Below, in pieces: positions 2,991-60,747 of a stretch of DNA of 64,000 bases. The first letter of the stretch is position 1. Every line of letters begins with the position of its first letter. The stretch lies in assembly GCA_047947115.1 (NCBI GenBank), contig CP170459.1:3232001-3296000 (forward strand), in the 5' to 3' direction. This DNA comes from Verrucomicrobiota bacterium. GTDB lineage: Bacteria; Verrucomicrobiota; Verrucomicrobiia; Limisphaerales; AAA164-E04. Position numbers and translations under genes: made by a program. Below the pieces are notes generated by a model. It was given only the letters and a program-made list of their open reading frames with translations. It had not been told where the DNA came from and searched no databases.

Positions 2991-3054
2991 CTGGCTATTG
3001 AATCCTGTGTCATCCGGAATCGCAAGCAAGGATGTTTGTTGTGTCGGGGGGCGG

Positions 3055-3090
3055 GAAAAAACAAGACGGGCCTGTCGCCAGGCCCGCTTT
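3055..3090 (-). terminator. Rho-independent terminator after 3123..3530
   Basis: On the minus strand AAAGCGGGCCTG-GCGA-CAGGCCCG followed by TCTTGTTTTTT. Confidence 0.7.
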
Positions 3091-3122
3091 TATTCATCTT
3101 GGTTGCTTGGTTGAAGGGATGC

Positions 3123-3530: not shown

Positions 3531-3813
3531 AATATTCGATTCGAGTTGGTTTACTCAAAGTGCATACAAATACTAAACAGGAAACTTTGATTTGCAAACA
3601 AAAACAGTGCGCCTATAGCTTTGATGTTCTGTTTTTTGAATTGTCATTTTTTTGTCATGTTTTGTTTTGTGAATTTTTATGTAAAAACAGATAATAACCA
3701 TATTACTAATTGGTAATGGAATGTTAGAATTAGTTTTTACTCTTTTAAATATTTAGGTTTCATTCGTTCTTGATGAAGTTTTTTTTGGCATATTAATCTG
3801 TTTCAACCTTGTT

Positions 3814-6969: not shown

Positions 6970-7060
6970 GGATTCAATGGGTTTTGCCTTAACAAGGCTT
7001 GAATAATTGACTGCCAAAAGACTCCATGAATTCCATCGAGTCGCAAGCAAATCTTCCTAA

Positions 7061-9130: not shown

Positions 9131-9232
9131 GTATCAATGAGGATGCTGTTTTTGTTTTATTCAATGGATTACGACTTGTCCAGTGCTGTCGTTTTGGCAT
9201 GATGAAGGGACCATGAACCACGCGACAGAGCT

Positions 9233-10708: not shown

Positions 10709-13029
10709 CACTATTATTGACACGTTTTTTTTACATGGGAGATGGGCCTTCATTGCTTCGGGGTTCAAAAGGTTATTCGATATGCTTGGGTGTCTTACTA
10801 TCGATTGTTTCGATGGGTTGTCCGCCTGTTTACGCTGAACCTTTTTCTCCAGGATTAGTTCAGACAGATGGACTCGCATCGCACGTGCGTGGAAAAGTAT
10901 GGATCGATGCGCTTGGCTGTGAGGCCTGTCACGATGATGGATCACTTGATAAGCCTCAGGAATTTGGACCTGATTTAACCCATGTTGGCGATCGGGTGCG
11001 TCCGGAGTGGTTGGTGTCCTATTTGTCTGATCCGCACACGTTCAAACCAGGCACACTGATGCCCGATCTGGTTGCTGCTTTGCCATCCAATGAAAGAACG
11101 GAAACGGTAGAGGCGTTGGTTCATTTTCTGATGGCTCAGAAAGCTGCGGATGAGCAGTCAGTAAAGCAAACAAGCGGATCGGTCGAGAACGGGCAGCGGT
11201 TGTTTCATTCCATCGGTTGTTTTGCATGCCACCCTTATGGGGAGGATTTGAAATCTTCCGGTTGGCTTGAAAACCTGCAATCCAAGTACACACCAGACGG
11301 ATTGGTGTCATTCCTGAAAGATCCTCTCAGTGTGCATCCCAACGGGATCATGCCCGACCTGGGCCTGTCGCATGATGAAGCATCGGATCTGGCCTCTTTC
11401 CTGATGGGGCAAAGTTCATCAGCCAAAAGTTCATTTCAGTTAATCAACAACAAGATTGAACGTGGACAGAGTTTGTTTGGCGGGCTTGGCTGTGTTCAGT
11501 GCCACTCAGCATTGACAACGCGAAGGCTTGGAGCCGGCAACAAAGCGAAGTTGACGGCTCCAAGCCTTCGCGTTGTCAACCCTTCGAAAGGATGTCTTTC
11601 CCATGAAGAAGGTTCCTGGCCGGATTATGATTTATCAGATCTACAGATACGGGATATCACAGCGGCTTTCGATTCTCTGGAGCACTTGTCGGAATCGGAA
11701 CTGATTCAATCCCATCTGGTGCGATTCAATTGTATCGCCTGTCATGAACGGGAAGGGGTGGGAGGCGTCAGTGAATCACTGGATGCCTTGTTCACAGTCA
11801 CCGACCTCAATCTCGGTGAGCAGGGAAGGGTGCCGCCTTCTCTGAATGGTGTCGGAGCCAAGTTGAATCCGGTGTGGTTGCGCAAGGTGCTGGTCCAAGG
11901 CGCCGTTGCTCGGCCTTATCTCAATGTGCGGATGCCGCGTTTTGGCTCAGCGGTGGCGGATCTTGTGGTGGGTTTGTTTGTGCATGCAGATGTATTGCCT
12001 CCTGTGGGTGTCATTGAAATGCCCAATCAAAATGACAGTCGGCGCGCGGGACGTGATCTGGCGGGTGTCGATGGGATGGCGTGTATCACCTGTCACACTT
12101 TCAAAGGAACCAAAACCGGCGCAATGGGAGCGATGGATTTAACCTTGCCCGGGCAGCGGCTGACGCGCGATTGGTTTCATCATTACATGCTCCAGCCCCA
12201 ACGATTCCGTCCGGGCACTTTGATGCCGGACTTCTGGCCTGAAGGACATTCTTCCAAACCGGACATCCTGGAAGGGAATGCCTCTCAACAAATCGAAGCC
12301 TTATGGGTGTTTCTTTCCGATGGATTCAGCATTGATACGCCCAAGGGGGTTCATCGAGAACCCATGCGATTGTTGGCCACGGACGCCGAGGCTGTGATGT
12401 TGCGTCGTTCCTATCCGGGCATCGGTAAACGCGGTATTGGTGTCGGTTACCCAAAAGGAGTCAATTTGGTGTTCAATGCTGAACAACTTTGTCTGGCCAT
12501 GATTTGGAAAGGTGAATTTGCTGATCCAGCCGGCGTTTGGCTGAGTCAGGGGCACGGCAATGTGCGCCCCATGGCACGCCAACAAATTCGGTTTCCCAAC
12601 ACGCCGCAGGTGCAGTTGCTTCAAGATGCCCTTTCCCCCTGGCCTGATTCAGGCGAACGTTCGGCTGTCCACGCTTTCAAAGGGTATCGGCTGGATTCCC
12701 AACGGCGACCGACCTTTTTATATGAAGTTGAGGGCGTCCTGTTTGAAGACACGTTTCGCGATGAGACCAAAGGTGATTCCGTATGGCTTCGCCGGGAAAT
12801 CAAAACCAACACATTCGAAAACGCCGGATCCTACATCATTCGAGCAGCCCTCGGTGAGGCGATCATCGATCAGGGAGATGGTCGTTTCCGCGTGGATAAG
12901 GATTTGACTATCGAAGTGCCGGAAGGAGCCGAAGCATGGGTGGTGAACGGAAACGAAGGTCAGGAACTGCGCGTTCGAATACCGGATAGTGGAGATGGCA
13001 AAGCATTGAATCTGAATTATGGATTTTAA
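10705..13029 (+). CDS. Pentaheme c-type cytochrome (PVC type)
   Basis: Five CxxCH motifs (CEACH, CFACH, CVQCH, CIACH, CITCH) with MP distal-Met motifs; ATGA overlap with the DUF1501 gene. Confidence 0.88.
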   Translation: MTLLLTRFFYMGDGPSLLRGSKGYSICLGVLLSIVSMGCPPVYAEPFSPGLVQTDGLASHVRGKVWIDALGCEACHDDGSLDKPQEFGPDLTHVGDRVRPEWLVSYLSDPHTFKPGTLMPDLVAALPSNERTETVEALVHFLMAQKAADEQSVKQTSGSVENGQRLFHSIGCFACHPYGEDLKSSGWLENLQSKYTPDGLVSFLKDPLSVHPNGIMPDLGLSHDEASDLASFLMGQSSSAKSSFQLINNKIERGQSLFGGLGCVQCHSALTTRRLGAGNKAKLTAPSLRVVNPSKGCLSHEEGSWPDYDLSDLQIRDITAAFDSLEHLSESELIQSHLVRFNCIACHEREGVGGVSESLDALFTVTDLNLGEQGRVPPSLNGVGAKLNPVWLRKVLVQGAVARPYLNVRMPRFGSAVADLVVGLFVHADVLPPVGVIEMPNQNDSRRAGRDLAGVDGMACITCHTFKGTKTGAMGAMDLTLPGQRLTRDWFHHYMLQPQRFRPGTLMPDFWPEGHSSKPDILEGNASQQIEALWVFLSDGFSIDTPKGVHREPMRLLATDAEAVMLRRSYPGIGKRGIGVGYPKGVNLVFNAEQLCLAMIWKGEFADPAGVWLSQGHGNVRPMARQQIRFPNTPQVQLLQDALSPWPDSGERSAVHAFKGYRLDSQRRPTFLYEVEGVLFEDTFRDETKGDSVWLRREIKTNTFENAGSYIIRAALGEAIIDQGDGRFRVDKDLTIEVPEGAEAWVVNGNEGQELRVRIPDSGDGKALNLNYGF

Positions 13030-46559: not shown

Positions 46560-49500
46560 TCAGTTTCTAATGGGTTGGGAGATGCGCAGGTATGCGAAGA
46601 AATCCCTTAGCTGTTGATCACTCAGGTCGTTCAGCAAACCTTCCGGCATCAGACTGCGGCTGTTGGGTTCCATGGATTCGATCTCTGTGTTCGGCAGGGT
46701 CACATCCTGACCGTCCAGTCCTCGCAGCACTGTGACCTGATTGTCACGATCCACCTGAAACCCGGCAAGTGACCTGCCATCCTTGGTCTCAATGTTCACA
46801 TACTGATATCCCTCACGTATCTCTGCGTTGGGGTCCAGAATGCTGGTCAGCAAAGTGCCCAGATCCTTTCGCTGGTAAGCGGTCAGATCAGGTCCGACCT
46901 GACCGCCTTTGAAAAACAATTTGTGACAAACGCCGCATCGTTCGAGGAAAATGGGTTCCCCCTTGTAGGGATCTCCTGAACCACCCTGCAGTATGGTTTG
47001 GATATGACTCTGCTTGATGGGAATGGTTTGCTCGCTCCCGGACTGCTTCAATGGAAACATTTCGGCTGCTCTGTCCCGGATGCTTTGATTGGCATGTGAC
47101 CGGAACAGGTCGGCGATTTCATTTGGTATGAAAGACACACTCAATGCACCGGATTCAATGTTTTCAAACAGTTTCTCGGTCCATCGGGGTCTGTTGGCCA
47201 ACAAATTCAACGCTGCCAGACGAACGTCATCCGGAATGTCGGGTAAAAACTCGAGGATGGCATCGGCAATCGATTCGGACGTGTAGGCACTCAGGGAAGC
47301 GAATGCCGCTTTGCGCAGTTCGGGTGGAGCTTTTGATTTCGCAAGGTTCAGCAACACCGAGAGGTTGGATGTTCGCCGGGCTTCTCCCAAAGTGCGTGTG
47401 TAAAGCAGGCGATCTTCCAAGGCTTGCTCTTCGCTTGCTATGATCACGGCGGCTTCCTCAAATGCTGCATCCTCTCCCTGACGCAGACGAAGCACCAGAG
47501 AACGGGATGTGGCTTGTGCCAGTTCCAACGCGAGTTCGTCCGGAATCACCGGAATGGTGCGTCCGCGGAATGCCTGCTCATATCCTTGCAACAGGGCATC
47601 CGTTTGTTCTTCCGTATCTGCAAACGCCAGCAAGTTTGCCAATAAAACCAAATCCTGCCGCTTTCCGTCCACTGCCAACCTTCGAGCCAGTCTTGGCAGG
47701 ACTTGTTTGCGGATGATGGGCTGCCTCCAAAGGTCTTTGGTCATAAAAGATCTTACGATGCTCTGTATGTTCTCGGGAATATGGGCTTCCAATACCCACC
47801 AACTGAGCAGAGGGATGAACGGATCCTCCAGATCTTCGTCATGGTGCATGATGACCTTGATCAGTGAGAGGCCCTGTGCGAGTTCCAACCTGCGTGCGGT
47901 GGAGGCCATTTGCGACCTTGTCTCGGGATTGTTTTCAATACGTGCCTGATCCATAAGCGCTTTCATAAGCGCATCGGGTAGGGGAAGCGCCTTCAAACGT
48001 TTGCCGGGCAAACCAAGATTGCGATGGATCCCGTAGGTGTCTCCAATAAAGCGCACCGCCCAGTTACGCACCGCCGCTTCTGAATGTTGAAGCGCTTGAA
48101 TCGCTGTGCCGGAATCCAAACCTCCTGCCTGATACAAAGCCCAAAGCGCGTTCCATGCCGTCGGGCCCGTTGAATCAATGATTTTTCTGCGCAAGGTTTG
48201 AAAGGTGGAAGGGCTTCGTCGTTCTCCCAGAAGTCGGACAGCAGTCTGGCGATGCCATTTGTTCGGATGTCCCAGCAGGTCCATTAATTCAGAGTCGGAT
48301 TTGGCGGCCAGGTTCAGATCCGACTCGCGCGGTAAATCCTTGCCGGCTATGCGAAAGATACGGCCGGTGGTGGGATCAATCTGGTTCTGATAATGCTGAC
48401 CGTGCGCGATGTAAAACTCATACATGTCTGAAACCATGATGGAACCGTCCGGAGCGTTTGCGATATGGACTGGTCGAAACGCGGGATCGAAACTCTTCAC
48501 CACCACACCTTGATCCTTCGTTCTAAAGGTGGCTCCGCGTTCTTCCCGATGGGAGGCAATCACCTCGTTGTGCAGGGGGTCAATCGCAAATAACATGCCG
48601 TGCCATTGGGGCGGAATGGCGGAACCTTCCGCAAAAGCTCCAAAGTGGGTGAATCGTACCACGCGATCCGGTGTTGCCATCATGGGCAATTCCCCGAATG
48701 CATACGGGTTTCTTGGAGGTCCAAACTTGCCGGGATTGACTCCCTGCATCTGGTAAAAACCTCCCTGAACAAAATGCCATCCTCTGGTGCTTCCTCCGTT
48801 GTGCCCCGAGTACAAGCGACCTTCTGCGTCAAATTCCAAACCGTAGGTGTTACCGCCACCCTCGGCAAAGAGTTCAAATGCCCGGGTCTCCGGATGATAA
48901 CGCCACACCATGCATCCTTCAAAATAAACACCGGTTGCACCCTTCGCATCAATGCCTGGACGCGTGACTCGACATGAACAGGTGCTGCCCTGACCTCCAT
49001 AAAGCCAGCCGTCCGGCCCCCAGACCAGTCCATTGGAAATTGAATGAGAATCCTCGAAACCAAATCCGGTTAAATGCACTTCCGGATCTCCGTCAGGAAT
49101 GTCGTCGTTGTTGGCGTCTGGGTAGAACAGCAGGTGAGGTGTATGCATGATCCAGACACCCCCGTGTCCGCGAATGGCGGAGTTGGCCATGTTCAGACCA
49201 TCCACAAATGTCTTGTGCGTGTCGTAGGTGCCGTCACCATTGGTATCTTCGTGAATGGTGATCCGATCGGCTCCCGGCGTGTGATTGGGCGGAGCAGGGG
49301 GGATGGCATTGTAATGCGAGCGGTAATATTTGTCCCGGCTCAGCATTTCAATTCCGGCCGGGTAGGGATATTGTCTGGATTGAGCCACCCACATCCTTCC
49401 TCGTTCATCAAAAGTGAAATGGAACGGTTGGGTGACGGTTGGTTCGTAAAGCAGCAACTCCGTTTCCAATCCTTCGCTGGCAGTCATCCTCGCCGCCGAT

Positions 49501-50156
49501 TCATGGGGTGCCAGACGGGGACCGTGGACCTGCTCTGTTCGCGCCAGAACACGCTGTGACTCCCTGAACTGGTCAAAAGCCGCCCGCTGAGGTTGTACAT
49601 CGATGGCTGGCCCCGGTACGTAAGTGTCCTCTTTTAGAAACTCCCATTCGCCTTCAAACACACATTCAAGAAAGTAATCCATGATAAAAGGAGACTCTCC
49701 CAGGAACCCTCCCAGGCTGGCCGGGGCTTGTAAACGCAAGGTAAGCTCATTCCACTTACCTTTCTCAAGCGTGCCCGCCGGGATTTTATGTCGGAAGGTC
49801 GTGTTTGTTGATTCCTTGTTTTCGGGAGTCGAAACTTGGCCGGAGCCGACCTTGGTGCCATTCACCCACAAGGCGTGATTGCCCACCAGACCCCTTATAT
49901 GCATCCCCACTGATTCTTCAAAGAGGTTGCGTTCGTGTCGGCTGAAATAACTGTCCGGAACCTTCACCCAACACCGATACCAGCCTGTGGCGGTGCTGAT
50001 GGATGAATCAGGAAACGCTTGTGCCCAGTTTCCCGGGACCGAAAGGGTCTGCCAATCCGCCGAGTAGGTGAACGTGGCACTGGAGATCCAGGCTAAGGCA
50101 ATCCACGATACGTTGAAAAAACGATGAATGAACTTCATTCCATACGACTGGGACAT
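46560..50156 (-). CDS. PVC-type heme-binding membrane-bound dehydrogenase with N-terminal galactose-binding-like domain
   Basis: WQTLSVPGNW...GWYRCWV N-domain; EP.V.QP...FDERGRMWV..QYP, EDTNGDG, WGPDGWLYG, FRPV...APDG; C-terminal CGVCH, GPDLT, SLMPEGLL. Confidence 0.9.
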   Translation of the reverse strand: MSQSYGMKFIHRFFNVSWIALAWISSATFTYSADWQTLSVPGNWAQAFPDSSISTATGWYRCWVKVPDSYFSRHERNLFEESVGMHIRGLVGNHALWVNGTKVGSGQVSTPENKESTNTTFRHKIPAGTLEKGKWNELTLRLQAPASLGGFLGESPFIMDYFLECVFEGEWEFLKEDTYVPGPAIDVQPQRAAFDQFRESQRVLARTEQVHGPRLAPHESAARMTASEGLETELLLYEPTVTQPFHFTFDERGRMWVAQSRQYPYPAGIEMLSRDKYYRSHYNAIPPAPPNHTPGADRITIHEDTNGDGTYDTHKTFVDGLNMANSAIRGHGGVWIMHTPHLLFYPDANNDDIPDGDPEVHLTGFGFEDSHSISNGLVWGPDGWLYGGQGSTCSCRVTRPGIDAKGATGVYFEGCMVWRYHPETRAFELFAEGGGNTYGLEFDAEGRLYSGHNGGSTRGWHFVQGGFYQMQGVNPGKFGPPRNPYAFGELPMMATPDRVVRFTHFGAFAEGSAIPPQWHGMLFAIDPLHNEVIASHREERGATFRTKDQGVVVKSFDPAFRPVHIANAPDGSIMVSDMYEFYIAHGQHYQNQIDPTTGRIFRIAGKDLPRESDLNLAAKSDSELMDLLGHPNKWHRQTAVRLLGERRSPSTFQTLRRKIIDSTGPTAWNALWALYQAGGLDSGTAIQALQHSEAAVRNWAVRFIGDTYGIHRNLGLPGKRLKALPLPDALMKALMDQARIENNPETRSQMASTARRLELAQGLSLIKVIMHHDEDLEDPFIPLLSWWVLEAHIPENIQSIVRSFMTKDLWRQPIIRKQVLPRLARRLAVDGKRQDLVLLANLLAFADTEEQTDALLQGYEQAFRGRTIPVIPDELALELAQATSRSLVLRLRQGEDAAFEEAAVIIASEEQALEDRLLYTRTLGEARRTSNLSVLLNLAKSKAPPELRKAAFASLSAYTSESIADAILEFLPDIPDDVRLAALNLLANRPRWTEKLFENIESGALSVSFIPNEIADLFRSHANQSIRDRAAEMFPLKQSGSEQTIPIKQSHIQTILQGGSGDPYKGEPIFLERCGVCHKLFFKGGQVGPDLTAYQRKDLGTLLTSILDPNAEIREGYQYVNIETKDGRSLAGFQVDRDNQVTVLRGLDGQDVTLPNTEIESMEPNSRSLMPEGLLNDLSDQQLRDFFAYLRISQPIRN

Positions 50157-50247
50157 GTCCTACCTTTACAGTAATCATGGGCTCCAAGTCGAGCGGAGAC
50201 TCGAGGACTGATTCTTAATCTCTCGCCAAGGAGTCCTGATCAATCAT

Positions 50248-51534
50248 ATGATCAGGATTATGAGTGTTCTGAGGAATAGATTTTGCATGGAAGTGATGAA
50301 CCTCACATGCCTGCTTTTGATGACATCAGGTGTGTGCAGAGTTTTTGCACAGGAGGAAATACCCTGGTCAGCCAGACATGATCTGATCGAGCAGCTTTCC
50401 AAGAGACCTGGATTCAATTACGATGAATCCAAAGTGCCCGAGTATGTTCTTCCTGATCCATTGATTGCCGAAGATGGAACCCCTGTTTTGAGCGCGCGTC
50501 AGTGGAATGAATCACGCCGTCAGGAAATCCTGAATCTGTTTCGGGATCAGGTATATGGTCGACGTCCGACCACAGAGTATCAACTGACATTCGAGCAGAC
50601 AGCCGAAGAGAACGACGCACTCGAAGGAAAAGCGATCGGACGTAGCATGATTGCGAAAGTTTCAATACGGAATCGCTCTTTCTCATGGCCCTTTGTCCTG
50701 TTTCTGCCCAAGAAAACCAAAGAGCCGGTGCCAGCCATCATTCTCATCAACAATCGATACTTCATTCCGTTGGACAAGGCAGCCAAGGAGCATGATCCTT
50801 TCTGGTCCGTCAAGCAGATCATTGACCGGGGATATGCAACCGCATCCTTTCACACATCCGATGTCGATCCTGACAGAAAAGAAGGTTATGGCGAGGGTAT
50901 ACGATCCTTTTTTGCGGATGGCACTCCACCTGAAGACAACGCCTGGCGCAGTCTCTCCGCCTGGGGCTGGGCAGCAAGCAGGGTTTTGGATTACATGGAA
51001 ACCGTGGATGCGATCGATGCCGGACGCGTCGCGGTTGTCGGACATTCCCGTGGGGGGAAAACATCTCTTTGGGCTGCGGCCGAGGATGCTCGTTTTGCCA
51101 TCGCTTACAGCAATAATTCCGGCTGTGGCGGTGCGGCTCTTTCACGAAGAGCTTACGGAGAGACGGTCGCTATCATTACCAGAGGCTTCCCTCATTGGTT
51201 CTGTCCGCCATTTGCGGCGTTTGGCGGAAAAGAATCTGAACTGCCTGTAGATCAACACCAATTGATTGCGCTGATTGCTCCGCGAGGCGTTTACGTTACC
51301 AGCGCGGACGAAGATCTCTGGGCGGATCCGAAAGGTGAATACAGTTCCATTGTCGCGGCGTCTCCGGTCTTTCGCCTGTTGGACAAAACTTCGATTATCG
51401 AACCGCAAATGCCCTCATTGAATTCACCCAGAGTTTCAGGGCAAACCGGATATCACATACGAACCGGCGAACATAATCTGAAGGACCAGGACTGGACTTG
51501 GTTTCTGGACTATGCAGACGGTTTGCTTAAATAG
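50248..51534 (+). CDS. CE15 glucuronoyl-esterase-like alpha/beta hydrolase
   Basis: NYDESKVPEY.LPDPL, AWGWAASRVLDY, GHSRGGK, SGCGGAAL, LPVDQH, D.WADP.GE. Start uncertain. Confidence 0.9.
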   Translation: MIRIMSVLRNRFCMEVMNLTCLLLMTSGVCRVFAQEEIPWSARHDLIEQLSKRPGFNYDESKVPEYVLPDPLIAEDGTPVLSARQWNESRRQEILNLFRDQVYGRRPTTEYQLTFEQTAEENDALEGKAIGRSMIAKVSIRNRSFSWPFVLFLPKKTKEPVPAIILINNRYFIPLDKAAKEHDPFWSVKQIIDRGYATASFHTSDVDPDRKEGYGEGIRSFFADGTPPEDNAWRSLSAWGWAASRVLDYMETVDAIDAGRVAVVGHSRGGKTSLWAAAEDARFAIAYSNNSGCGGAALSRRAYGETVAIITRGFPHWFCPPFAAFGGKESELPVDQHQLIALIAPRGVYVTSADEDLWADPKGEYSSIVAASPVFRLLDKTSIIEPQMPSLNSPRVSGQTGYHIRTGEHNLKDQDWTWFLDYADGLLK

Positions 51535-51899
51535 CATTGTTTCGGCCATTATTGGAAAACTGCGAGTGTTGATCTTGCCAATGCTTTCTTCATTTCGAGG
51601 GGCAATTTGGAATGATTCTCGGAAACCCGCAAACCATCAATGAACAAGGCGTCACCATCGTGCCCTTCGACGTTCGATGACTCGAGAGCGACAACGTTTA
51701 TATTCAGGCCAAAGACCTGCTCCCGGAAGGCATGAACCATGCATTCATCGAACAAAGGAAGGAGACATTCCATGATAAATCTTCCTGACACATACAAGAC
51801 GAACGGTCGGGAACATTTCCAGGCGCAGATTTGGGAGCCTGTTTTCCAGTATGCAAATTCTGAACAGCAGCGGTGACATTTCCAATTGGAATAAAAAGG

Positions 51900-51915
51900 T
51901 TGCGATATACTCTCA
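51900..51915 (+). promoter_or_regulatory. Possible Fur/Zur-family operator
   Basis: TGCGA-N5-TCTCA imperfect inverted repeat, 25 nt upstream of the His-rich ORF. Confidence 0.3.
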
Positions 51916-51940
51916 GATGCATTAACTCCTATTTCAGAAA

Positions 51941-52309
51941 ATGAAATCCGTTCGCCACATCATCACTTTTTGGATGACAGCGAGTATCCTCGTTGCAGGA
52001 TTCCTCGCTCGTAGTGAGCAGTTTCATTCGTGGCTCCACGAGGGGGAGGAACATTGTCACGTCGAAGCATCCCATTGCCAAGATAAAGGACAAACGGGCC
52101 ACCACCACGAGGGTGAAAAAACGGAAGAACACCCGCATGGCCTTCTGACCTTGATGGCTGGAGCAGCCATGGAAAGTTCTTTTGTTCCGTGCGTCTGTCC
52201 CGAACCTGTTTTTTCTCAATACTCCTTTGTTGCCTGGAATCTCCAGGAAATTCCATGCGTTCGAACATGGAAGGCGACCCAGGGTCGCGCCCCTCCCATT
52301 CTTTCCTGA
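51941..52309 (+). CDS. His/Cys-rich DUF2946-like leader protein ending in RAPP
   Basis: Hydrophobic N-terminus, 11 His and 5 Cys, C-terminal GRAPPILS*. Confidence 0.8.
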   Translation: MKSVRHIITFWMTASILVAGFLARSEQFHSWLHEGEEHCHVEASHCQDKGQTGHHHEGEKTEEHPHGLLTLMAGAAMESSFVPCVCPEPVFSQYSFVAWNLQEIPCVRTWKATQGRAPPILS

Positions 52310-52417
52310 TCCTTTCTCTTATTTTTCGAACCAAGGCGTTTCACTTGTGGACAAACATGCTTTCCTGCGAAGCATGCCCTTTGGAATGCCGCTCATTAAA
52401 TCTTTTATATTATTGTT

Positions 52418-53179
52418 ATGTCAGAATCCTGTGAGCCCCCTCAAGTTGGCGCCAGGTTGCGTGGTATCCATCATTTTGGGTTCACGTTGATTGAATTGCT
52501 GGTGGTGATCGCCATCATAGGCTTGTTGGCATCGATGCTTTTTCCGGCTCTGGGAAAAGCTTCGGCAAAAGCCAAACAGGTCCGGTGTGCTTCGAATATG
52601 AGGCAGATCGGTCTCGGTATATCCATGTATGCCGATGACTTTGACGGTAAACTACCCCAAACAGCTCATGAAACGTTGAGCACCAATAAAATTTGGATAC
52701 GCCAGATTCACTCTTATGTGGGAAATTCAGACGACATCCGCCTTTGCCCGGCGGATCCGACCCGTATGGACCGTCGTGAGAGTGGTGGAACAAGTTATAT
52801 TTTGAACGATTTCATTTCGTTGCCGATCGTGGATTCTTTCGGACAGGTTCTAGTGCCTGTCCCAAAACTGGATCAACTGCGGCAACCTTCGGAAAGCATC
52901 CTTCTTTTTGAAGTGGCGGATGAATATGGGCCATCGATATTTTCCGATCACACCCACTCCCGCGCCTGGCTGAGAAGCGGCTGGGAAGGTGTGGTGTCGG
53001 ACATTCAACCCGATCGACATCGGGGAGGTGCTCCCAACGAGGATCGCACCAAGGGCAGGGCTAATTACCTGTTTGTGGATGGTCATGTTGAGTCCATCGA
53101 TGCAGCCGATTTGAAACGCCAGTTCGATCAAGGTATCAACTTCGCGCAACCACCTGAATTCCGCCAGCCTGTGCCATAG
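52418..53179 (+). CDS. Prepilin-type N-terminal cleavage/methylation protein with H-X9-DG-like (DUF1559-like) domain
   Basis: G|FTLIELLVVIAII..LASMLFPAL, C.SN.RQIG, CPAD, SY..N, RH...ANYLFVDGHV. Confidence 0.92.
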   Translation: MSESCEPPQVGARLRGIHHFGFTLIELLVVIAIIGLLASMLFPALGKASAKAKQVRCASNMRQIGLGISMYADDFDGKLPQTAHETLSTNKIWIRQIHSYVGNSDDIRLCPADPTRMDRRESGGTSYILNDFISLPIVDSFGQVLVPVPKLDQLRQPSESILLFEVADEYGPSIFSDHTHSRAWLRSGWEGVVSDIQPDRHRGGAPNEDRTKGRANYLFVDGHVESIDAADLKRQFDQGINFAQPPEFRQPVP

Positions 53180-53320
53180 GATTGTTTGACGACTCATCAC
53201 GTTTTCGAACCTGGATCATTTTTATCATGTGTCATCCACGACGGCTCTTTGTGCCCGGTATGGGGTTGGCAATCTTTCATCAAAATCAATTTTAAACTTT
53301 TATTTTGCTCATTTCTTTCA

Positions 53321-56300
53321 ATGAAACGATTTGTTTTTAAAAATCTTATCCTGCCTGTATGGGGCATGGTGGCAATGGCGGCATTCGCCGGTGAACGACA
53401 AATGTGGACAGATGGTCATGGTGATCTCCAAGTCGGATACCAAGGCGGTGAATGGAACTGGGGAGTATGGACAGGCAACGAGGTGGATGAAGTCATCATC
53501 GCGCTGGATCACTCTTCAAAGGCCTTGATTCCCGACCATCCTAATTTTGAATTTCTGGGTGCGGTGGATGATCCGGTCTGGATTGCTCCTCAAGTTGACA
53601 AACAAGGTGTGGTGTTTCTTGGTGCAAACACTTCTTCCACACCACAAGGAACGTTCGTTGGCAATCGAATTGATTTGAAACTGACAAGTGTCCGGGGACC
53701 AGGTGATTTCTTCGTGTGGACCACGGGCGGTGCTGGTTCGGTCGAAGTCCCCATGAATTCACGTGACGGCATTGATGCAAAGGATGTCATCAACGCACCG
53801 GCTCCCGGACATTGGCATCAGAACTGGGGGTTCAGTTCTCCCGGAACCTACCTTGTGGGATTCACGGCTGAAGGAAGGCTCGCTGGACAATCCAGTGTCA
53901 TCACCAGTGAAGAGGAAGTTTATCGGTTTGCGGTCAATGTTTTTGACCGGGGTGAACTGGACTTGGAAGTCGCCTATGAAGACGGTGAATGGGAATTGGT
54001 TCTACTGGATGAAGCAAACGAGATGGAAATAGAGGCAGGTGAAGCCGCATTGCACGCAAGTCCCGGTACCTGGCAAGCGGTGCCATCCGATCCTGCTTAC
54101 GGTTTTCTTGGACGTCCTGGAGACAGTATCCACATCCTTCCACAGGAGGAAAAGGAAGGAATCTTGTTTTTAGGGATTGCCGGTGACGAGATTGAAGCAG
54201 GTGTTTTTGAGAATGATCAGGTATCTCTCAATCTGGCATCCGTGGACGGACCCGGCGCTGTTTATCTTTATTCGACCGATTCATTTGGAACTCCAACCAA
54301 GTACTTTGATTCCGGCGACGGCATCTCCGAATCGGATCAGTTTCCGGTAAGCGTTGGTGGGCATTCTCACCAGAACTGGGCTTTTTCAGCTCCTGGTATC
54401 TACCGTGTCGGACTGAACGCCTCAGGCGTGTTGACGGACGGTACACCTACCAGGAGTGAAGATACGGTTTTTCTATTTGAGGTATTCGGCCCCACCATTA
54501 TCGGAGAAGGGGAACTTGATCTCGAAGTCGCCTATGAAAACGGCGAATGGGAACTGGTGGGGTTGGACGAAGCCAATGAACGGGAGATTTTTGCCGATGA
54601 GTTGGTGATTTTAGGCACGGATGCCTCGAAGGTGGTCGTTCCGGAGGATCCAGCCTTTGGATTCCTGGGGGCTCCTGGTGACTCGGTCAACGTGCTGCCT
54701 CAGGAAGAAAAAGAAGGCGTTTTGTTCCTGGGGATCGCCGGAGATGAAATTGAAGCAGGTGTGTTCGAGAACGACTTGGTCGGACTCAATCTTTCCAGCG
54801 TGGACGGACCTGGAGCCGTGTATCTCTATTCAACAGACGCCTTTGGTTCACCTACCGTATATTTTGATTCTGCCAATGGAATCAGCGAAGAAGACGTATT
54901 TCCGGTGAGCGTGGGGGGACACTCTCATCAGAACTGGGGTTTTACACAACCAGGTGTTTACCGGGTTGGATTGCAGGCTTCCGGTCAACTGGCTGGATCA
55001 GCTGATACACCCCAGAGTGATGTCGCGGTGTTTACATTTCATATTCAGTCCGATGGAGGCTCCCCGGCTATGCCTTCCGTTTTCGCAGACGGTGAAATTG
55101 ATCTTGAAGTCGCTTTTGAGGAGGGTGAATTCGAACTTGTCCTGCTCGACGAGGTCAACGAACGAGAAATAGAGGCTGCCGATGGTCTTTTGACGTGTGT
55201 GGCTGCCACATTGGAACCTGTCCCGAATGATACTTCCTTTGGCTTCCTTGGCAATCCGGGTGATCGAATCTTCGTCCTGCCACAAGACGAGCAGGAAGGA
55301 GTTCTGTTCCTGGGAATTGCCGGTGATGAAATTCCTGCCGGTGAATTCCTGGACGATTCGGTCGGGTTGAATCTGGTGGAGGTTGACGGGCCTGGAAATG
55401 TGTTTCTTTATTCGACGGATGAATTCGGAATCCCGATGAAATATTACGATTCCGCCGATGGTATCACTTCAGAGGACCTGTTCCCGGTCAGTGTGGGCGG
55501 TCATTCACATCAAAACTGGGGATTCTCAGCCGCCGGTCATTATGAAGTCAAACTCCAAGCCTCAGGTGTGAAAGCCGCTAATGGTGAAACCGTCACCAGC
55601 GAGGCCGTATCCTTCTTCTTCGAAGTGATCGAACCTGAGGTCTTCAATGCCGGTGAATTGGATATGGAAGTCGTCTATGAAGATGGCGAATGGGAGCTGG
55701 CATTGCTGGATGAAGCCAACGAACGCGAAGTGGAACCGAACGAGGCACTGCTTCAAGGAGCACGAGGAACAAGGCAAACCGTCCCTGGAAATCCCGACTT
55801 CAGCTTCCTGGGTGAAGCCGGAAATGTCGTCTGGGTGTTGCCTCAGGACGAAACCGAAGGTGTTCTGTTTCTCGGGATTGCCGGAGACGAAATAGCATCC
55901 GGCGTTTTTGAGAATGACTCCGTGGATCTCCAACTCGTTGGGGTGCGCGGACCCGGTGATGTTTGTCTTTACGCGGTGGATGCATTTGGATCGCCACAGG
56001 TGTTCTTCAACTCCGGTGATGGTTTTGATGAAACCGACTCTTTTCCTGTAAGCGTCGGTGGGCATTCACATCAAAATTGGGGATTCACAGCTCCTGGTGT
56101 CTACAAGGTATCACTGCAGGCTTCCGGGACCTTGACGGGAGCCGCGAACCCGATCCAAAGCGAAGTGGTGGAGTTTACTTTCGAACTGCTTTCGGAAGCC
56201 CCATCCATGCTGACGGTTTCACGAACGGAAGATCAAAGCATCCTGATTCAATGGCCTTCCGTAGCAGGTTTGAATTATCAGCTTCAATCCATTCCATCAT

Positions 56301-56437
56301 TTGGAGACGGAGACTGGGTGAATGATGGAGATGTCATCCCGGGAACCGGCGAACCCATCGTCATGGAAGCGCCGATCAACAGCGAGGTGGCCTCCCGATT
56401 TTACCGGTTGATGATGGTTCAAAACAACAATCCTTAA
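53321..56437 (+). CDS. Secreted protein with five choice-of-anchor-M-like (surface-anchored metal-binding) repeats and C-terminal FYRL domain
   Basis: Signal peptide from ATG 53321; repeats G(H/E)xD...LPQ...FLG...L..V.GPG...HxHQNW.F...G.Y; C-terminal W...G..YQLQS...W...RFYRL. Confidence 0.85.
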   Translation: MKRFVFKNLILPVWGMVAMAAFAGERQMWTDGHGDLQVGYQGGEWNWGVWTGNEVDEVIIALDHSSKALIPDHPNFEFLGAVDDPVWIAPQVDKQGVVFLGANTSSTPQGTFVGNRIDLKLTSVRGPGDFFVWTTGGAGSVEVPMNSRDGIDAKDVINAPAPGHWHQNWGFSSPGTYLVGFTAEGRLAGQSSVITSEEEVYRFAVNVFDRGELDLEVAYEDGEWELVLLDEANEMEIEAGEAALHASPGTWQAVPSDPAYGFLGRPGDSIHILPQEEKEGILFLGIAGDEIEAGVFENDQVSLNLASVDGPGAVYLYSTDSFGTPTKYFDSGDGISESDQFPVSVGGHSHQNWAFSAPGIYRVGLNASGVLTDGTPTRSEDTVFLFEVFGPTIIGEGELDLEVAYENGEWELVGLDEANEREIFADELVILGTDASKVVVPEDPAFGFLGAPGDSVNVLPQEEKEGVLFLGIAGDEIEAGVFENDLVGLNLSSVDGPGAVYLYSTDAFGSPTVYFDSANGISEEDVFPVSVGGHSHQNWGFTQPGVYRVGLQASGQLAGSADTPQSDVAVFTFHIQSDGGSPAMPSVFADGEIDLEVAFEEGEFELVLLDEVNEREIEAADGLLTCVAATLEPVPNDTSFGFLGNPGDRIFVLPQDEQEGVLFLGIAGDEIPAGEFLDDSVGLNLVEVDGPGNVFLYSTDEFGIPMKYYDSADGITSEDLFPVSVGGHSHQNWGFSAAGHYEVKLQASGVKAANGETVTSEAVSFFFEVIEPEVFNAGELDMEVVYEDGEWELALLDEANEREVEPNEALLQGARGTRQTVPGNPDFSFLGEAGNVVWVLPQDETEGVLFLGIAGDEIASGVFENDSVDLQLVGVRGPGDVCLYAVDAFGSPQVFFNSGDGFDETDSFPVSVGGHSHQNWGFTAPGVYKVSLQASGTLTGAANPIQSEVVEFTFELLSEAPSMLTVSRTEDQSILIQWPSVAGLNYQLQSIPSFGDGDWVNDGDVIPGTGEPIVMEAPINSEVASRFYRLMMVQNNNP
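53414..56190 (+). repeat. Five intragenic tandem repeats of about 540-580 bp
   Basis: Repeat-start Gly codons at 53414, 53951, 54509, 55091, 55652; near-identical DNA at GGxCAxTCxCAxCAxAAxTGGG and GGxATxGCCGGxGAxGAxAT in repeats 2-5. Confidence 0.9.
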
Positions 56438-56452
56438 TAGTTGCTTGGGATC

Positions 56453-56497
56453 GCATAGCGGCGCTCCAGCGCTTGTGCGTTTTGAGCGCCGCTATGC
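56453..56497 (+). terminator. 14-bp inverted repeat just after the repeat-protein gene (possible terminator)
   Basis: GCATAGCGGCGCTC...GAGCGCCGCTATGC, followed by a G/T-rich tail. Confidence 0.5.
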
Positions 56498-56607
56498 ATG
56501 GGGTTTTGTGGTTTGTGGACAACCACCACGGTTCCGGATAAAAGAAGAGAGCTGATCGAATCACGATTATGCACAAAAGCTCGTCCAGTCACTTTGAAAG
56601 GTGTGAG

Positions 56608-56960
56608 CTAAACCAAGACGGGAGGAGCGCGGGAAGGAGTCGAAGTGCGGAAGCGTTTTGTCTCGATCAGGTTGACCGTGAGTGAGGTTAGTTCAGTAAA
56701 ATGGAAGGATTCTCAACAAACTTTGACAGGCTCGATTTTAAGATCAACTCCCGATTGACAGAAGGGTTGCAGTGGATCTGGCGCTTTGGGTGTCTGATCG
56801 TTTGATGTGTGACCGCTTTCCTCCTCTTCACAAGCAGTACATACATGCTGTTAAACACACTGAACTTCCTCGCCACAAATCCAATGATGGAACGCATGAC
56901 TCCCAGCTCCAAGCGATACCAACCATACAAGCGCAATCACCATCAATGCTGACAGGATTT
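56608..56960 (-). pseudogene. Decayed second DUF2946-like RAPP leader
   Basis: Single frame: [49 protein letters not shown]...PFCQSG...KVC*ESF...TPSRAPPVLV*; internal stops at 56851-53 and 56713-15. Confidence 0.75.
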
Positions 56961-56961
56961 G

Positions 56962-57126
56962 GTGGATTCCGGTGGTGCGGAGATATTGCCTCAACGGGGT
57001 GTATGCATTATCCCCGACATTTTTCTGAATGCTGGAGGTGTCACCGTCTCCCACTTCGAATGGCCGAAGAACCGTGCCGGTGTCAGTTTTGACAGCATGA
57101 TTTCCTGCCTCCGAAGGCAAGAATGA
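56962..57126 (+). pseudogene. Fragment of a Glu/Leu/Phe/Val dehydrogenase (glutamate dehydrogenase) gene
   Basis: Manual translation: [32 protein letters not shown], matching the family motif PD...NAGGV.VSYFEW.KN. Confidence 0.8.
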
Positions 57127-57282
57127 TCAGCCATTGCTTATATATCACCGAGTATGGGGGGCATAGTTCATTGCAGATGCTGGCCGGAATCCTTCGCATT
57201 GTTTCAGGGGTTTGTTGATTTGTTCTGATGCTCATCTTTGAAGTTGATTCTTGAGCCTGATCGTGAAGAATTTCGTCAAATT

Positions 57283-59316
57283 ATGACCATGCTAACTTGT
57301 TACTTACACAAACCCTGGATGCTGCTTCTTGCTGCATGCTTTGGATTTGATTGGTGTGCGAACGGCAGTCAACTTGAGATTGCCGGATTGTCAGTGACCC
57401 CACATGTTCAATCCAAATCCATGCGTTACCGGCGTGATCCTGATCCCGAGCTGGGGGCACGGGTGGAACTTTTTTTGCGGAATCAAGATCAGGTGCCGCT
57501 GACCATGGCGCCTGAGTTTCCAGCGACCTTCGATGGTCAGAGTGCAGGGCATTGGCTCGCCTCCGGGGATTGGGCCTGGCACGACACCCCGTCGGCATGG
57601 AGCAACGAAACCCTTTCTTTGGCTCCGGGCGCGATGACGGTTTGGAGCTTTAACTCAAAAGTGTCCAAGTGGGGGGAGGGGAGTCACCATCAACTCGTGC
57701 TCGGCAATGATTCCTCGACTCCACTCGGATTTTACCTTGAAAAGCCCACTGTTTGGCTTTCGGCGGTGACGTTTGTGGGTGAGGGGGACTCGGTTCACCC
57801 TGTCCGGATTGTTATTCATATCGCCAATGAATCAGGGCACTCTGTCACACCGCAAGCTTGTCGCTTGTGGTTGCCCACCGGTCACTCCAACTATCGTGTG
57901 CTTTATCCCCAGGACTGGCTTCGAAACGTTCATCGTTTTCCAATAGGCACCGGCATTCAGTCTGGTGGGAAGGGGGGATTTGTGGTTGAGACCGGACCGT
58001 TGCCCTTGACTTACTGTGCTGTCGAGGTGGAAACCTCAACCCAGGAGGGAGTAGTGTCTTCCCTGTGGGCGCATCTCCGCATCAAACGCGAGATGTTTGA
58101 CATGGGTGGTGGTTGGGTTGCGGATCGTGTCGGTGACAGCAACACACTACAGGCTGTGCTCTATTTGAAAACCCTGCGTCGGATGCACATCAACAGCGGT
58201 ATGCATCAAGACGTCACAGGTTATTCCGACACTTCCCTGTTTGATCAGTATCCGCTGAAGTATATGAACCGACTGGAACCTTTCGAGCGATATGATACCG
58301 ACCTCATGCTGCCGCGGATTCACGCTGTGGAATTTCAGGGCGAACCGCAGTATGGCGGGGGGCGTCCGGTTCCGCCTCAGGAGGTGCTGACCCGTTTTTT
58401 ACCTTATGGTCCCACCCGGCTGCCCACATCAGTCACTCACAGTGAAGAACGCATCTGGAGGTATTACGCAGGTCTTTCCGACTATCCCCATTATGATGCC
58501 TATCGTGTGTGTGCTCCGGCACCCGATTCCTGGACGCGTTATGATCGTTGGGGTGGGGAACGGCTTCGTTGGGCGGCACCTCTCGAGACGATTGCAGACA
58601 TGACCCGCAGCCTGCGCGAACTCAATCGACCGCGTCCCATCGCCTACTGGTCTCAGGGGGCGCACGATGGCTGGGGACAATACGGAGGCCGACAGCGTAC
58701 TTCGCCTACGCCGGATGAACTGCGCGCACAGGCATATCATGCCCTTTCCCAAAGAATCACTTCACTTTATTGGTTTAATCTGAGTTTGAAGTCGTTGTTG
58801 AAGTTTCGCGATCTGATCGAACCGATCACGCGTGTGAACCGAGAGATCCGCTTGATGGAAGACCTGCTACTCGAGGGGGATGCTTTCGAATATCGTCGGG
58901 AGATCGAGGAAGGGCAACTCTCCTGGGACTTGGCCTCGGTGATGGGGCCCTCCGGCGGTCTTTTGTTTGCGCATGATTTGGCTTATGTTCCTGACCTTGA
59001 TGAAAAGGTGTTCAAATTCCGGCCTCGTGATGGCCTCTTTGTTTTCAAACTCCCCGCCTACTTGAGTCAGCCCACACAAGTGTTCCGACTGGATGCCGAC
59101 GGGCTGCATGATGTGACATTCACGGTGGAGGAAAATCGAATCATCCTGCGCGACCGGGTGAAGGTTGCCGGCATTTATGTTGTGTCACAGAACGATCATT
59201 TGCGGGCATCATTGGAGGCGCGTCATGCCAGCCTCATTGCTTTTGAACGAGGCTTTGGATTTGATCCAGCACACTCTGATTCCGACTTTGAAGCTCTCAA
59301 GCAAATACTCCCATGA
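57283..59316 (+). CDS. Secreted hypothetical protein (beta-rich N-domains + possible glycoside-hydrolase-like barrel)
   Basis: Long ORF with signal-like N-terminus; GEPQY, HYDAY, TPDELRAQAYHAL...ITSLYWF resemble GH-barrel C-terminal elements. Confidence 0.7.
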   Translation: MTMLTCYLHKPWMLLLAACFGFDWCANGSQLEIAGLSVTPHVQSKSMRYRRDPDPELGARVELFLRNQDQVPLTMAPEFPATFDGQSAGHWLASGDWAWHDTPSAWSNETLSLAPGAMTVWSFNSKVSKWGEGSHHQLVLGNDSSTPLGFYLEKPTVWLSAVTFVGEGDSVHPVRIVIHIANESGHSVTPQACRLWLPTGHSNYRVLYPQDWLRNVHRFPIGTGIQSGGKGGFVVETGPLPLTYCAVEVETSTQEGVVSSLWAHLRIKREMFDMGGGWVADRVGDSNTLQAVLYLKTLRRMHINSGMHQDVTGYSDTSLFDQYPLKYMNRLEPFERYDTDLMLPRIHAVEFQGEPQYGGGRPVPPQEVLTRFLPYGPTRLPTSVTHSEERIWRYYAGLSDYPHYDAYRVCAPAPDSWTRYDRWGGERLRWAAPLETIADMTRSLRELNRPRPIAYWSQGAHDGWGQYGGRQRTSPTPDELRAQAYHALSQRITSLYWFNLSLKSLLKFRDLIEPITRVNREIRLMEDLLLEGDAFEYRREIEEGQLSWDLASVMGPSGGLLFAHDLAYVPDLDEKVFKFRPRDGLFVFKLPAYLSQPTQVFRLDADGLHDVTFTVEENRIILRDRVKVAGIYVVSQNDHLRASLEARHASLIAFERGFGFDPAHSDSDFEALKQILP

Positions 59317-59349
59317 AACGTAAACGCCGCCCATTTTAATGTTTTTACG

Positions 59350-59421
59350 AAGCGGTAGCCACGCTTTTCAAAGCGTGGCTACCGCTTGTTGACGGGCGTA
59401 GACGCCTTCGCCAGAAGGTGT
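59350..59421. repeat. REP-like GTAG palindromes between convergent genes
   Basis: Perfect 18-bp IR AAGCGGTAGCCACGCTTT-TC-AAAGCGTGGCTACCGCTT (59350-59387); second GTAG-ACGCCTTC-GCCA-GAAGGTGT (59398-59421). Confidence 0.65.
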
Positions 59422-59439
59422 AGCGTCCCGAACGTTTAC

Positions 59440-60747
59440 TTACCTCAAAGGGCTCGATTCGGTGAGCGATCTTGGTCGTTTGTCATCGAAGTTTTGGGTC
59501 GCTTTGATGGTGTTGGTTTCCAGAGTGATGTCTTTTGCCTTGCTTCCGATACGGATTCCAGTGTGTTGCCTTCCGCTGCCTGTGTCTTCGATGCTGTTGT
59601 TTCGAATCACGGTTCCTCGGGTGGCTCCATCAACGAACAAGCCCCAACCCTTATTGTCGCGAACAGTGTTTTCCTCAAAAGTAATCCTATGTGCTGCCAT
59701 GGGCTCTGTTTCCGCACGCCAATAGACACCTCCACGTTGATTGCCCACAATGGTGTTTTGTCGGACCATATTTCCGCTGTCTTTGTGACCGATCGACATG
59801 CCGTAACCGCCATTTCCCTCAAGCCAGTTTCCTTCCGCAATCCCTCCTCTGACTCTCCAGCAAAAGAAGAAACCGTCCTCGTCGTTCTGGATGGCCCGAC
59901 AATGGGACACAGTAGGGCGTTGGGAACCGCTGCCCGGATGCAATCCAAATCCGGCGCAATGTTGGACCACACATTGTGTGACGGTGACGTCGTTGGACTG
60001 CTGAAAACTGATGCCGTCACCCTGGTAGTTGATGACTTCACAATCGGTGATCACGCAATGATCGCCTCGGTAAAGGTAGATGCCTGCCGTGCGGCAACCG
60101 TCTACCTTGGTGGGGTTGTTTTGCCGGTTGCCGTCCACGATCAGGTGTTCCACCCGGGCATCCTGAATTTCATAACCGCTGATCACCGGGTAAATGGTGG
60201 CGGCAAAGCCGCCGTCGGCTACCATGATATCGGCATTCATGGGGCGGGTGAGTGTGAAATGGTTTTCTTTGCCATTGAGGATGGTGGCGCAGACTCCGTG
60301 AAAATTGCGTTGTGTTCTGGAGGCGACATAAACACCTCTTCCAAGTTTGAAGCCATCTGTGTTTTCCACGGTGATGGCGGCTTCGCCATAGTCGCCGTCC
60401 GCAACCAGCGGGGATCTGTATTCCTTGGTCTTTTTCAAGATGGTTCGTCCGGGTGTTCCCCTGACAGTCACGCGGCTGCGCAGGTGAAGGGAATCATGCA
60501 TTGTAAACTCGCCGGGCCCAATCCTGACCAGGCCTCCCCCCAGGTTGCCCACGTAGTCCACCGCTGCCTGCAGGACGCGGTTGTCGTTGCCGATCATGTC
60601 CGCATCCTGCAATCCCACGGTGACCTCAATGGCCGGCTGGGCGTGCAGATCGTTTTCGGCATATTGACGTCCTGCCTGGTCTGCCGGTGATTGCCGGCTG
60701 AACAGGACCACCAAGCCCAACATCAAATGGAATTGTATGGATTTCAT
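59440..60747 (-). CDS. Secreted right-handed parallel beta-helix protein (pectin-lyase-like fold)
   Basis: LQAAVDY...GGG.V.I.PGEF, IVDGNR, repeated N...G(I/F) PbH1-like turns. Confidence 0.88.
   Translation of the reverse strand: MKSIQFHLMLGLVVLFSRQSPADQAGRQYAENDLHAQPAIEVTVGLQDADMIGNDNRVLQAAVDYVGNLGGGLVRIGPGEFTMHDSLHLRSRVTVRGTPGRTILKKTKEYRSPLVADGDYGEAAITVENTDGFKLGRGVYVASRTQRNFHGVCATILNGKENHFTLTRPMNADIMVADGGFAATIYPVISGYEIQDARVEHLIVDGNRQNNPTKVDGCRTAGIYLYRGDHCVITDCEVINYQGDGISFQQSNDVTVTQCVVQHCAGFGLHPGSGSQRPTVSHCRAIQNDEDGFFFCWRVRGGIAEGNWLEGNGGYGMSIGHKDSGNMVRQNTIVGNQRGGVYWRAETEPMAAHRITFEENTVRDNKGWGLFVDGATRGTVIRNNSIEDTGSGRQHTGIRIGSKAKDITLETNTIKATQNFDDKRPRSLTESSPLR

Follow-up and report, generated by a model that had tools for sequence, protein, structure and literature searches.

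A putative zinc-sensing arrest peptide ahead of a pilin-like gene and a surface repeat protein in a Verrucomicrobiota bacterium

We analyzed a 64,000-nucleotide stretch of DNA (the window) from a Verrucomicrobiota bacterium of the order Limisphaerales (assembly GCA_047947115.1, contig CP170459.1, positions 3,232,001 to 3,296,000), and specifically an operon that begins with a small gene, P0001. We lean towards the reading that P0001 encodes a metal-sensing arrest peptide acting in cis, which would switch on the two genes behind it, for a pilin-like protein (P0002) and a predicted zinc-binding surface protein (P0003), when zinc is scarce. An initial annotation, made from the letters of the window, had proposed a metal operon of this composition. 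Its three co-oriented genes (51941-52309, 52418-53179 and a third reaching 56437) were confirmed, and the operon was recognized as a conserved RAPP leader with pilin-like and choice-of-anchor M partners, most likely in a zinc uptake context. The main features are as follows, with leader residues also numbered from the arginine of the RAPP motif.

51941..52309, + strand: leader P0001, 122 aa, with a hydrophobic N-terminus, F-H-x-W-x-H, HHH, H-P-H and RAPP
52100-52108, + strand: HHH of P0001 (His54-56)
52130-52138, + strand: H-P-H of P0001 (His64/His66, i.e. Arg-52/-50)
52286..52297, + strand: RAPP codons of P0001, residues 116-119, three codons ahead of the stop; predicted stall site
52418..53179, + strand: type IV pilin-like protein P0002 of the H-X9-DG/DUF1559 class, distinct subfamily
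53321..56437, + strand: P0003, an acidic secreted protein (1038 aa) that combines five choice-of-anchor M domains with a C-terminal domain of ~80 aa

P0001 is a real gene under purifying selection. Compared with four relatives, it showed dN values of 0.14-0.28 and dS values of 1.9-3.2 (in 4/6 pairs, the other two being saturated), and its RAPP codons varied synonymously with the motif retained. Both GRAPP and the cluster HHHEG..E.HPH were unchanged in 12/12 homologues, and the motif and gene order were conserved in homologous loci. The composition given initially (122 aa, 11 His, 5 Cys, RAPP three codons before the stop) was also correct. RAPP or RGPP tails ended 24 of 59,952 six-frame segments of at least 50 aa (the control window gave 12), and P0001 was the sole one of those 24 frames that, on visual inspection, combined a His-rich composition with a hydrophobic N-terminus. 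The hydropathy of this N-terminus, 1.94 across 15 residues and a hydropathy value only, fits an export signal or membrane segment of the CruR type, and such a segment is present in all leaders of our set. P0001 matched no Pfam or NCBIfam model, including DUF2946 (PF11162) at E up to 1, and an Rfam scan of 49000-60000 found no riboswitch or other family near gathering score. It does fit a wider leader family, with an E of 3e-8 against a hidden Markov model (HMM) built excluding its own subgroup.

This family is paired with one subfamily of pilins. Under a strict rule (tail [RC][AGSP]PP at most 14 residues from the stop, plus His/Cys at Arg-43 to -53), a leader stood ahead of 87 of the 105 distinct subfamily members with at least 600 nt of upstream sequence; loci were fetched for most, not all, places where the subfamily matched. 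The 87 tails were RAPP (53), RGPP (21), CGPP (6), RSPP (4) and RPPP (3), lying 1-9 (mostly 3-4) residues from the stop in peptides otherwise sharing about 15% identity per column. Three weak or doubtful calls (L222, L243 and L257) are counted among them and were left out of the HMMs and of alignment A8. Among the 18 leaderless pilins, four have a leader that is broken or was missed by the rule (L034, L036, L049, L050), and the quick tree puts eight in two distinct clades of paralogues with support 100. Neither the genome's 81 other pilin-like genes nor 97 generic pilins had a RAPP/RGPP leader. A profile scan of genome contigs with the pilin alignment caught generic patterns and unrelated pilins, and was kept solely as a negative control.

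Since the strict rule itself selects for the tail, we trained an HMM on leader bodies minus the tail. Its matches outside training numbered 15, of which 12 end in [RC][AG]PP, one carries RGPP farther from the stop and two are truncated. The pilin subfamily was matched in 21/22 genomes of the family and 95/351 of the order. Downstream, an HxHxNW-type motif occurs within 2.5 kb in 63/84 leader loci with enough sequence, and four further leader loci have BLAST homologues of P0003. The leader always heads its unit, and it also heads AztC-like, ZigA-linked and ZnuD-like genes. The observed facts are coding conservation, a constant motif position and His spacing, close linkage to one pilin subfamily and to choice-of-anchor M genes, and zinc-uptake neighbours in relatives.

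Several arrangements were seen beside this pattern. In L285 (G672, 2049-9252, - strand) three serial RAPP leaders head a pilin-repeat pair, an AztC-like ABC set and one more gene, and in L042 (G011, 8526-11108, - strand) the leader-pilin pair is tandemly duplicated ahead of the repeat gene. At G000:C1:418606-419100 (+ strand) a leaderless pilin paralogue, whose clade is without leaders, heads another cassette that by eye holds a large unknown protein, a small lipoprotein-like gene and a cytochrome c peroxidase-like gene. In the quick pilin tree P0002 clusters with the pilins of Cys-43 leaders, and the His-only leader is shared with L043, whose pilin sits elsewhere; a leader of the P0001 type was possibly swapped between pilin lineages in this case. 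An ESM Atlas look-up returned unnamed clusters and one DUF6769 cluster, which is a lead only.

The residues expected to sense the metal keep their distance from the motif. Among the 87 leaders, His stands at Arg-50 in 43, Cys at Arg-48 and Arg-49 in 39 and 24, respectively, and Cys at Arg-43 in 17, with a second His group at Arg-58 to -63. CruR has its Cys at Arg-49/-46 (PMC9426467). Like the P0001 unit, the CruR (Bp2923)-bfrG-bp2921 unit of Bordetella pertussis opens a metal-uptake unit with a small exported-type leader, has RAPP three residues from the stop and metal ligands ~45-50 residues upstream, and combines a long intergenic region, a C>G tract and the presence of Rho (PMC9426467). Unlike CruR, P0001 has H-P-H and HHH in place of CxxC, no Pfam DUF2946 match and a context that suggests zinc. 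The targets also differ, being a pilin-like gene and a surface repeat protein here and a TonB receptor and a PepSY_TM protein there. The initial comparison of P0001 with the DUF2946 leaders does not extend to membership: it has neither a PF11162 match nor a CxxC. The gathering cut-off of this family is 23.7 bits; 11/84 leaders match the family weakly (E up to 0.1, best 5.3e-5), and CxxC was found in a few relatives (L139, L199, L217). Judged by its sequence, P0001 is a distant CruR-like variant that resembles CruR by anatomy and is not a DUF2946 member.

For the second gene, the initial prepilin/H-X9-DG-like call was upheld. P0002 carries the prepilin site G|F-T-L-I-E (class III signal) and scored over the cut-offs for N_methyl (PF07963, 30.8 bits), DUF1559 (PF07596, 24.8 bits, cut-off 23.3) and H-X9-DG (TIGR04294, 20.7 bits, cut-off 19). 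The best wide structural match of its predicted model (pLDDT 76) was a type IV pilin, with modest resemblance (Z 5.5, rmsd 3.5, 114 aligned), and Foldseek with the same model gave no match at E 0.001. The genome encodes a prepilin peptidase and has 10 secretin-domain matches. Residues H84, D177, H178 and H180, invariant in 13 BLAST-chosen sequences, could form a metal site; the D-H-x-H invariance in alignment A6 is a product of selection and was not used as evidence.

The third gene likely starts at ATG 53321 rather than TTG 53186, which gives a signal-peptide-like N-terminus and agrees with the relatives. The five repeats of choice-of-anchor M type noted initially correspond to five NF038134 domains (597 bits, cut-off 55; TIGR03769 184 bits, cut-off 30.9), with HxHQNW motifs at residues 164, 348, 534, 728 and 915. 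The description of all three genes as carrying His-rich motifs was partly right: the His motifs are conserved, but the pilin (8 His/253) and the repeat protein (17/1038) are not His-rich overall. Repeat 1 has an HxD/HxH pattern, H33-G-D35 and H164-W-H166, whose spacing of ~130 residues agrees with the motif criterion of ZnuE/F/G (~150). Repeats 2-5 have ExD/HxH, not HxD, and relatives retain this pattern. The HxD/HxH invariance in alignment A7 is a product of selection and was likewise set aside. A single-sequence model of one repeat was unusable (pLDDT 35.6), and no solved homologue was found by sequence.

The closest described counterparts are ZnuA, ZnuE, ZnuF, ZnuG and CmrA of Corynebacterium diphtheriae (PMC12445094, PMC6711530), and P0003 matches NCBIfam anchored-repeat models among NF038134, TIGR03769, TIGR03772 and TIGR03773. 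In C. diphtheriae, Zur represses the anchored-repeat ABC locus (PMC6711530), and ZnuE/F/G share an HxD/HxH motif that is needed in zinc-limited growth, with metal binding at the motif unsettled (PMC12445094). We equate ZnuE/F/G with the domain of P0003 because dip0438 is annotated 'anchored repeat' and because of the motif, a comparison made without alignment; P0003 thus likely carries the zinc-linked HxD/HxH domain of Corynebacterium. As in C. diphtheriae, a multi-copy surface protein adjoins a metal ABC transporter in relatives. Unlike there, the host is Gram-negative, a sortase signal is absent, 4/5 repeats are ExD/HxH, and the partners are a pilin-like protein and a stalling leader.

Zinc is the most likely metal of the operon, since relatives add ZnuABC-like, ZIP, ZigA and ZnuD-like genes and a Fur-type box. 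In G007, genes for ZnuA, an ABC ATPase and an ABC-3 permease follow the repeat gene, and look-alike ABC genes stand there in G002 (67% identity), G004, G018, G019, G020 and G021 (the latter five seen and not individually scanned). The neighbours in other relatives include CobW-type GTPases, ZIP transporters, ZupT-like genes and one ZigA over cut-off. In addition, all3515 'Zur-repressed' family proteins over cut-off occur near relatives' loci, an AztC-like binding protein stands behind its own RAPP leader in a relative, and the best model for neighbouring TonB receptors is ZnuD, below cut-off. The initial idea that a pseudopilin serves in place of a TonB receptor is not supported in that form, as relatives carry ZnuA/ABC/ABC-3 genes (7 genomes), ZIP or a ZnuD-like TonB receptor.

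The Fur-type palindrome TAnTGCAAAnnnTTTGCAnTA scored at least 15 bits before 28/77 non-training leaders and in 0/87 control windows, and it was also found before leaderless loci. A Fur-family gene is divergent from the leader in G018, G004 and G002. The box-linked repressor scores weakly as Fur/PerR, not as named Zur, and PMC3087516 yielded no Zur motif for Verrucomicrobia. At P0001 the matrix reached 6 bits at best, and the box was absent from 7/7 loci of its own subgroup; a box picked out there by eye (9/10 match) failed the matrix test and was dropped. A matrix scan of the whole genome revealed no coherent regulon. As a separate observation, in G018 (L156-L162) the palindrome also precedes a CobW GTPase gene accompanied by one of FeoB type, genes for a Fur-family protein, a permease and a P1B ATPase, and a further leader-pilin pair, and these sites may outline an undescribed regulon.

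Between leader and pilin, two RNA elements may read out the stall:

52298..52347, + strand: C>G pyrimidine tract, unstructured (13 C, 6 G, 72% pyrimidine)
52335..52390, + strand: intergenic hairpin GGCGTTTCA / TGGAATGCC, weakly conserved in the own genus (8 pairs, two with two-sided change)

The tract is a candidate Rho loading site. The predicted fold leaves 46 nucleotides unpaired in this region, 72% pyrimidine at that position is reached in 3/3844 long frames of the genome, and Rho is encoded. The hairpin, a candidate pause hairpin, has a fold z of -1.2, which is not significant. Sixteen loci of the sister clade have a covarying helix instead, formed between the stop and the codons that follow RAPP on one side and the sequence immediately ahead of the pilin start on the other. 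The cognate duplexes there averaged -14.2 kcal/mol vs -9.9 for permuted ones, and 0/20,000 permutations were as low, a figure inflated by relatedness. In the published stall register the last Pro is in the A site and the preceding Pro in the P site (PMC12992588). By analogy with CruR/ApdP, the P0001 stall is predicted to place Pro118 in the P site and Pro119 in the A site, and in the sister clade a ribosome stalled in this register would cover the helix arm. This geometry is like that of CutF-cutO of Rhodobacter capsulatus, where a stalled ribosome opens a helix over the initiation region of the next gene (bioRxiv 10.1101/2025.02.05.636593). Unlike P0001, CutF stalls at PPP with copper and controls detoxification, and its masking helix has no counterpart in the window, whose fold places the pilin start in a weak stem.

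From these elements we propose the following mechanism. A ribosome would stall at RAPP of P0001, leaving His54-56 and His64/His66, 50-62 residues upstream, outside the exit tunnel and possibly exported, where they could bind Zn(II) if present. Zinc binding would then relieve the stall by the logic of CruR; we prefer relief to induction because the targets look like uptake genes. When zinc is lacking, the stalled ribosome would cover the start of the C-rich tract and block Rho termination before the pilin gene. Such CruR-type attenuation is our best guess for this genome, on which we are evenly divided; in the sister clade, the same stall would open the helix that masks the pilin start region. 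The repeat protein would bind zinc at the surface and feed the transporter that relatives encode next door. In the weakest step, the pilin-like protein would be a dedicated display or export partner of the repeat protein.

Several observations weigh against this reading. P0001 lacks a CxxC as well as any Cys from Arg-42 to Arg-50, which sets its sensor apart from those that have been tested; this Cys-free state occurs in 9/87 leaders, seven of them from the own genus. CGPP in 6/87 tails conflicts with the reported need for Arg, which was irreplaceable in the tested RAPP peptides ApcA/ApdA/ApdP (PMC12992588). C>G after the motif occurs in 70/87 leaders, which is partly a codon effect and proves no rut site. 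The masking helix was not found in the window (0.0 expected pairs between ribosome-covered codons and the pilin start) and is absent in 5/6 own-genus relatives (p 0.12), L043 being the one own-genus locus that has it, and such pairing is present in only 27/86 loci overall. FeoB-like, SCO/CusF and efflux-type genes also lie near loci or boxes, and neither the substrate-binding protein of the relatives nor their local Fur-family gene has a match in this genome. NF038134 occurs in 20/401 genomes of the phylum sample; at the 20 loci fetched from them a related pilin was adjacent in 10, with a leader in 1/10; in other classes the pilin-repeat pair is mostly leaderless. Finally, the leader and pilin counts overstate independent events because the genomes are kin. 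As an observation on the tails themselves, CGPP in place of RGPP was seen in L050, L219, L259, L261, L263, L267 and L269.

The same switch could respond to a metal other than zinc, either copper as in CruR/CutF or Mn, Co, Ni or Fe, which we regard as unlikely. Pointing to another metal are the weak DUF2946 matches, as the tested members of that family sense copper, together with FeoB-like genes in L148 and behind the box in G018, SCO/CusF genes near L048, the Fur/PerR-like score of the repressor and the carboxylate-richer ExD/HxH site of 4/5 repeats. However, genes of the ZigA, all3515, ZnuA/AztC-like, ZIP and ZnuD-like kinds turn up repeatedly as neighbours in different families and classes, the actinobacterial locus of the domain is Zur-repressed, and P0001 is without the pair of Cys that Cu(I) sites typically have. 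Somewhat less likely again is a secretion monitor of the SecM/ApdP type, in which pulling by the translocon frees the stall, two exported proteins are tuned to export capacity and the Fur-type box would be the sole source of any metal control. This was the role in which RAPP peptides were originally described, all leaders have the hydrophobic N-terminal segment, both targets are exported, and the box precedes many leaders and leaderless loci. Against such a monitor stand the His/Cys at a fixed distance from the motif, the His cluster invariant in 12/12 close homologues, and leaders that also head AztC-like, ZigA-linked and ZnuD-like genes. Moreover, 0/7 own-genus loci have the box, and since it is missing there, the leader is the only visible control in the own genus, including over the ZnuABC-like set in G007.

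We consider it quite unlikely that a metal-sensing stall acts here on translation initiation or mRNA stability, or that metal induces the stall by the logic of CutF. The masking helix in the sister clade and L043, the weak stem at the pilin start and the metal-dependent stalling of CutF would fit such a scheme; the 0.0 expected pairs in the window do not, and genes of uptake type nearby, together with repressor boxes, speak for expression when metal is low. That the small gene encodes an ordinary secreted metal-binding peptide, with no cis role for RAPP, seems very improbable. Its signal-like N-terminus and 11 His would suit such a peptide, but the motif position is fixed in 87 divergent leaders that always come first in the unit, RAPP is selected against in ordinary proteins (PMC12992588), and broken copies occur where the targets are lost, one with the motif itself changed.

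The initial remark that no transporter is encoded in the locus is true for the locus in the window, but the relatives have transporters, and by its gene content this genome is a reduced case of the unit. Two unrelated ZnuA-family genes lie elsewhere in the genome. Remnants of further cassettes were also recognized:

56608..57012, - strand: broken second leader, with two in-frame stops, tail SRAPPVLV and no pilin gene behind
G000:C1:79730-80100, + strand: third leader, interrupted by an in-frame stop; tail GCSPP

The second leader is the orthologue of the relatives' second leader-pilin cassette (44% identity, E 5e-39 to the L189 leader). Both of its stops are sense codons in contigs of a related strain in run X1, and in runs X1, X4 and X5 a different sequence continues past 56608. 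At the third leader, the 2 kb that hold the pilin and repeat genes of the orthologous G001 locus are missing. In both cases a broken leader coincides with missing target genes, as would be expected of a cis element. RNA runs with an estuary label contain contigs of close strains. The RNA-library contigs that span leader and pilin (X1, X2, X3) cannot show transcription, its level or ends, and were not counted as evidence.

Two further features flank the operon:

51893..51903, + strand: element AAAAAG(A/G)TTGC, ~40 nt ahead of the leader start
56453..56497, strand not assigned: 14-bp inverted repeat past the third gene

The element is kept in most of seven own-genus upstream regions and is likely part of the promoter; a sigma-70 scan did not flag it. 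The inverted repeat, seen in the sequence and partly flagged in a scan, is likely a terminator. Upstream (46560-51534) lie genes for a PVC-type heme-binding CxxCH protein (- strand) and a glucuronyl-esterase-like hydrolase (+ strand), which are not kept beside the cassette in relatives. A fused membrane/spermidine-synthase-like gene was seen beside L027, L028, L030, L031, L142, L144, L145 and L147, across classes; NF037959 was over cut-off in the one scanned, and the product possibly makes a metal-binding polyamine.

The initial annotation took the arrangement to be undescribed, which does not hold for the pairing of leader and pilin. The source table of Fig. 4B in Fujiwara et al. 2025 (PMC12992588) lists DUF1559 behind RAPP upstream open reading frames (112 RAPP vs 68 AAPP, 6.5-fold), and this list shares with the P0001 family the leader-before-pilin pairing and H-x-C type leaders. 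The parts covered of that work, whose supplementary data may list more, contain no mention of DUF1559, zinc or a pilus in the main text, and the subfamily, third gene, operator, RNA switch and ligand analysis were not found in them. No account of this operon came up in literature searches covering the domains, DUF1559 in connection with zinc, arrest peptides for zinc and Zur in Verrucomicrobia. The pairing of RAPP with DUF1559 is known; in this pilin and surface zinc-binding cassette we see a widespread form of the CruR/CutF switch that is so far uncharacterised and most likely tuned to zinc.

Nascent-chain metal sensing has so far been known for copper (CruR, CutF), and we found no zinc case in the literature. 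We put forward the fuller picture tentatively, with more doubt than belief: a His-only zinc arrest peptide would be the sole metal control left on a pilin-displayed zinc scavenger, the same family would drive Rho attenuation in one clade and a helix switch in its sister, and the pilin subfamily would give a first job to part of DUF1559/H-X9-DG. The Cys-free, His-only sensor and its natural variants (H-x-C, CxxC, lone Cys, CGPP tail) form a series for tests of metal choice. One orphan DUF1559 pilin subfamily, present in 95/351 genomes of the order, would be tied to zinc uptake, and the HxD/HxH zinc domain, reported from Corynebacterium in 2025, would be extended to Gram-negative aquatic bacteria.

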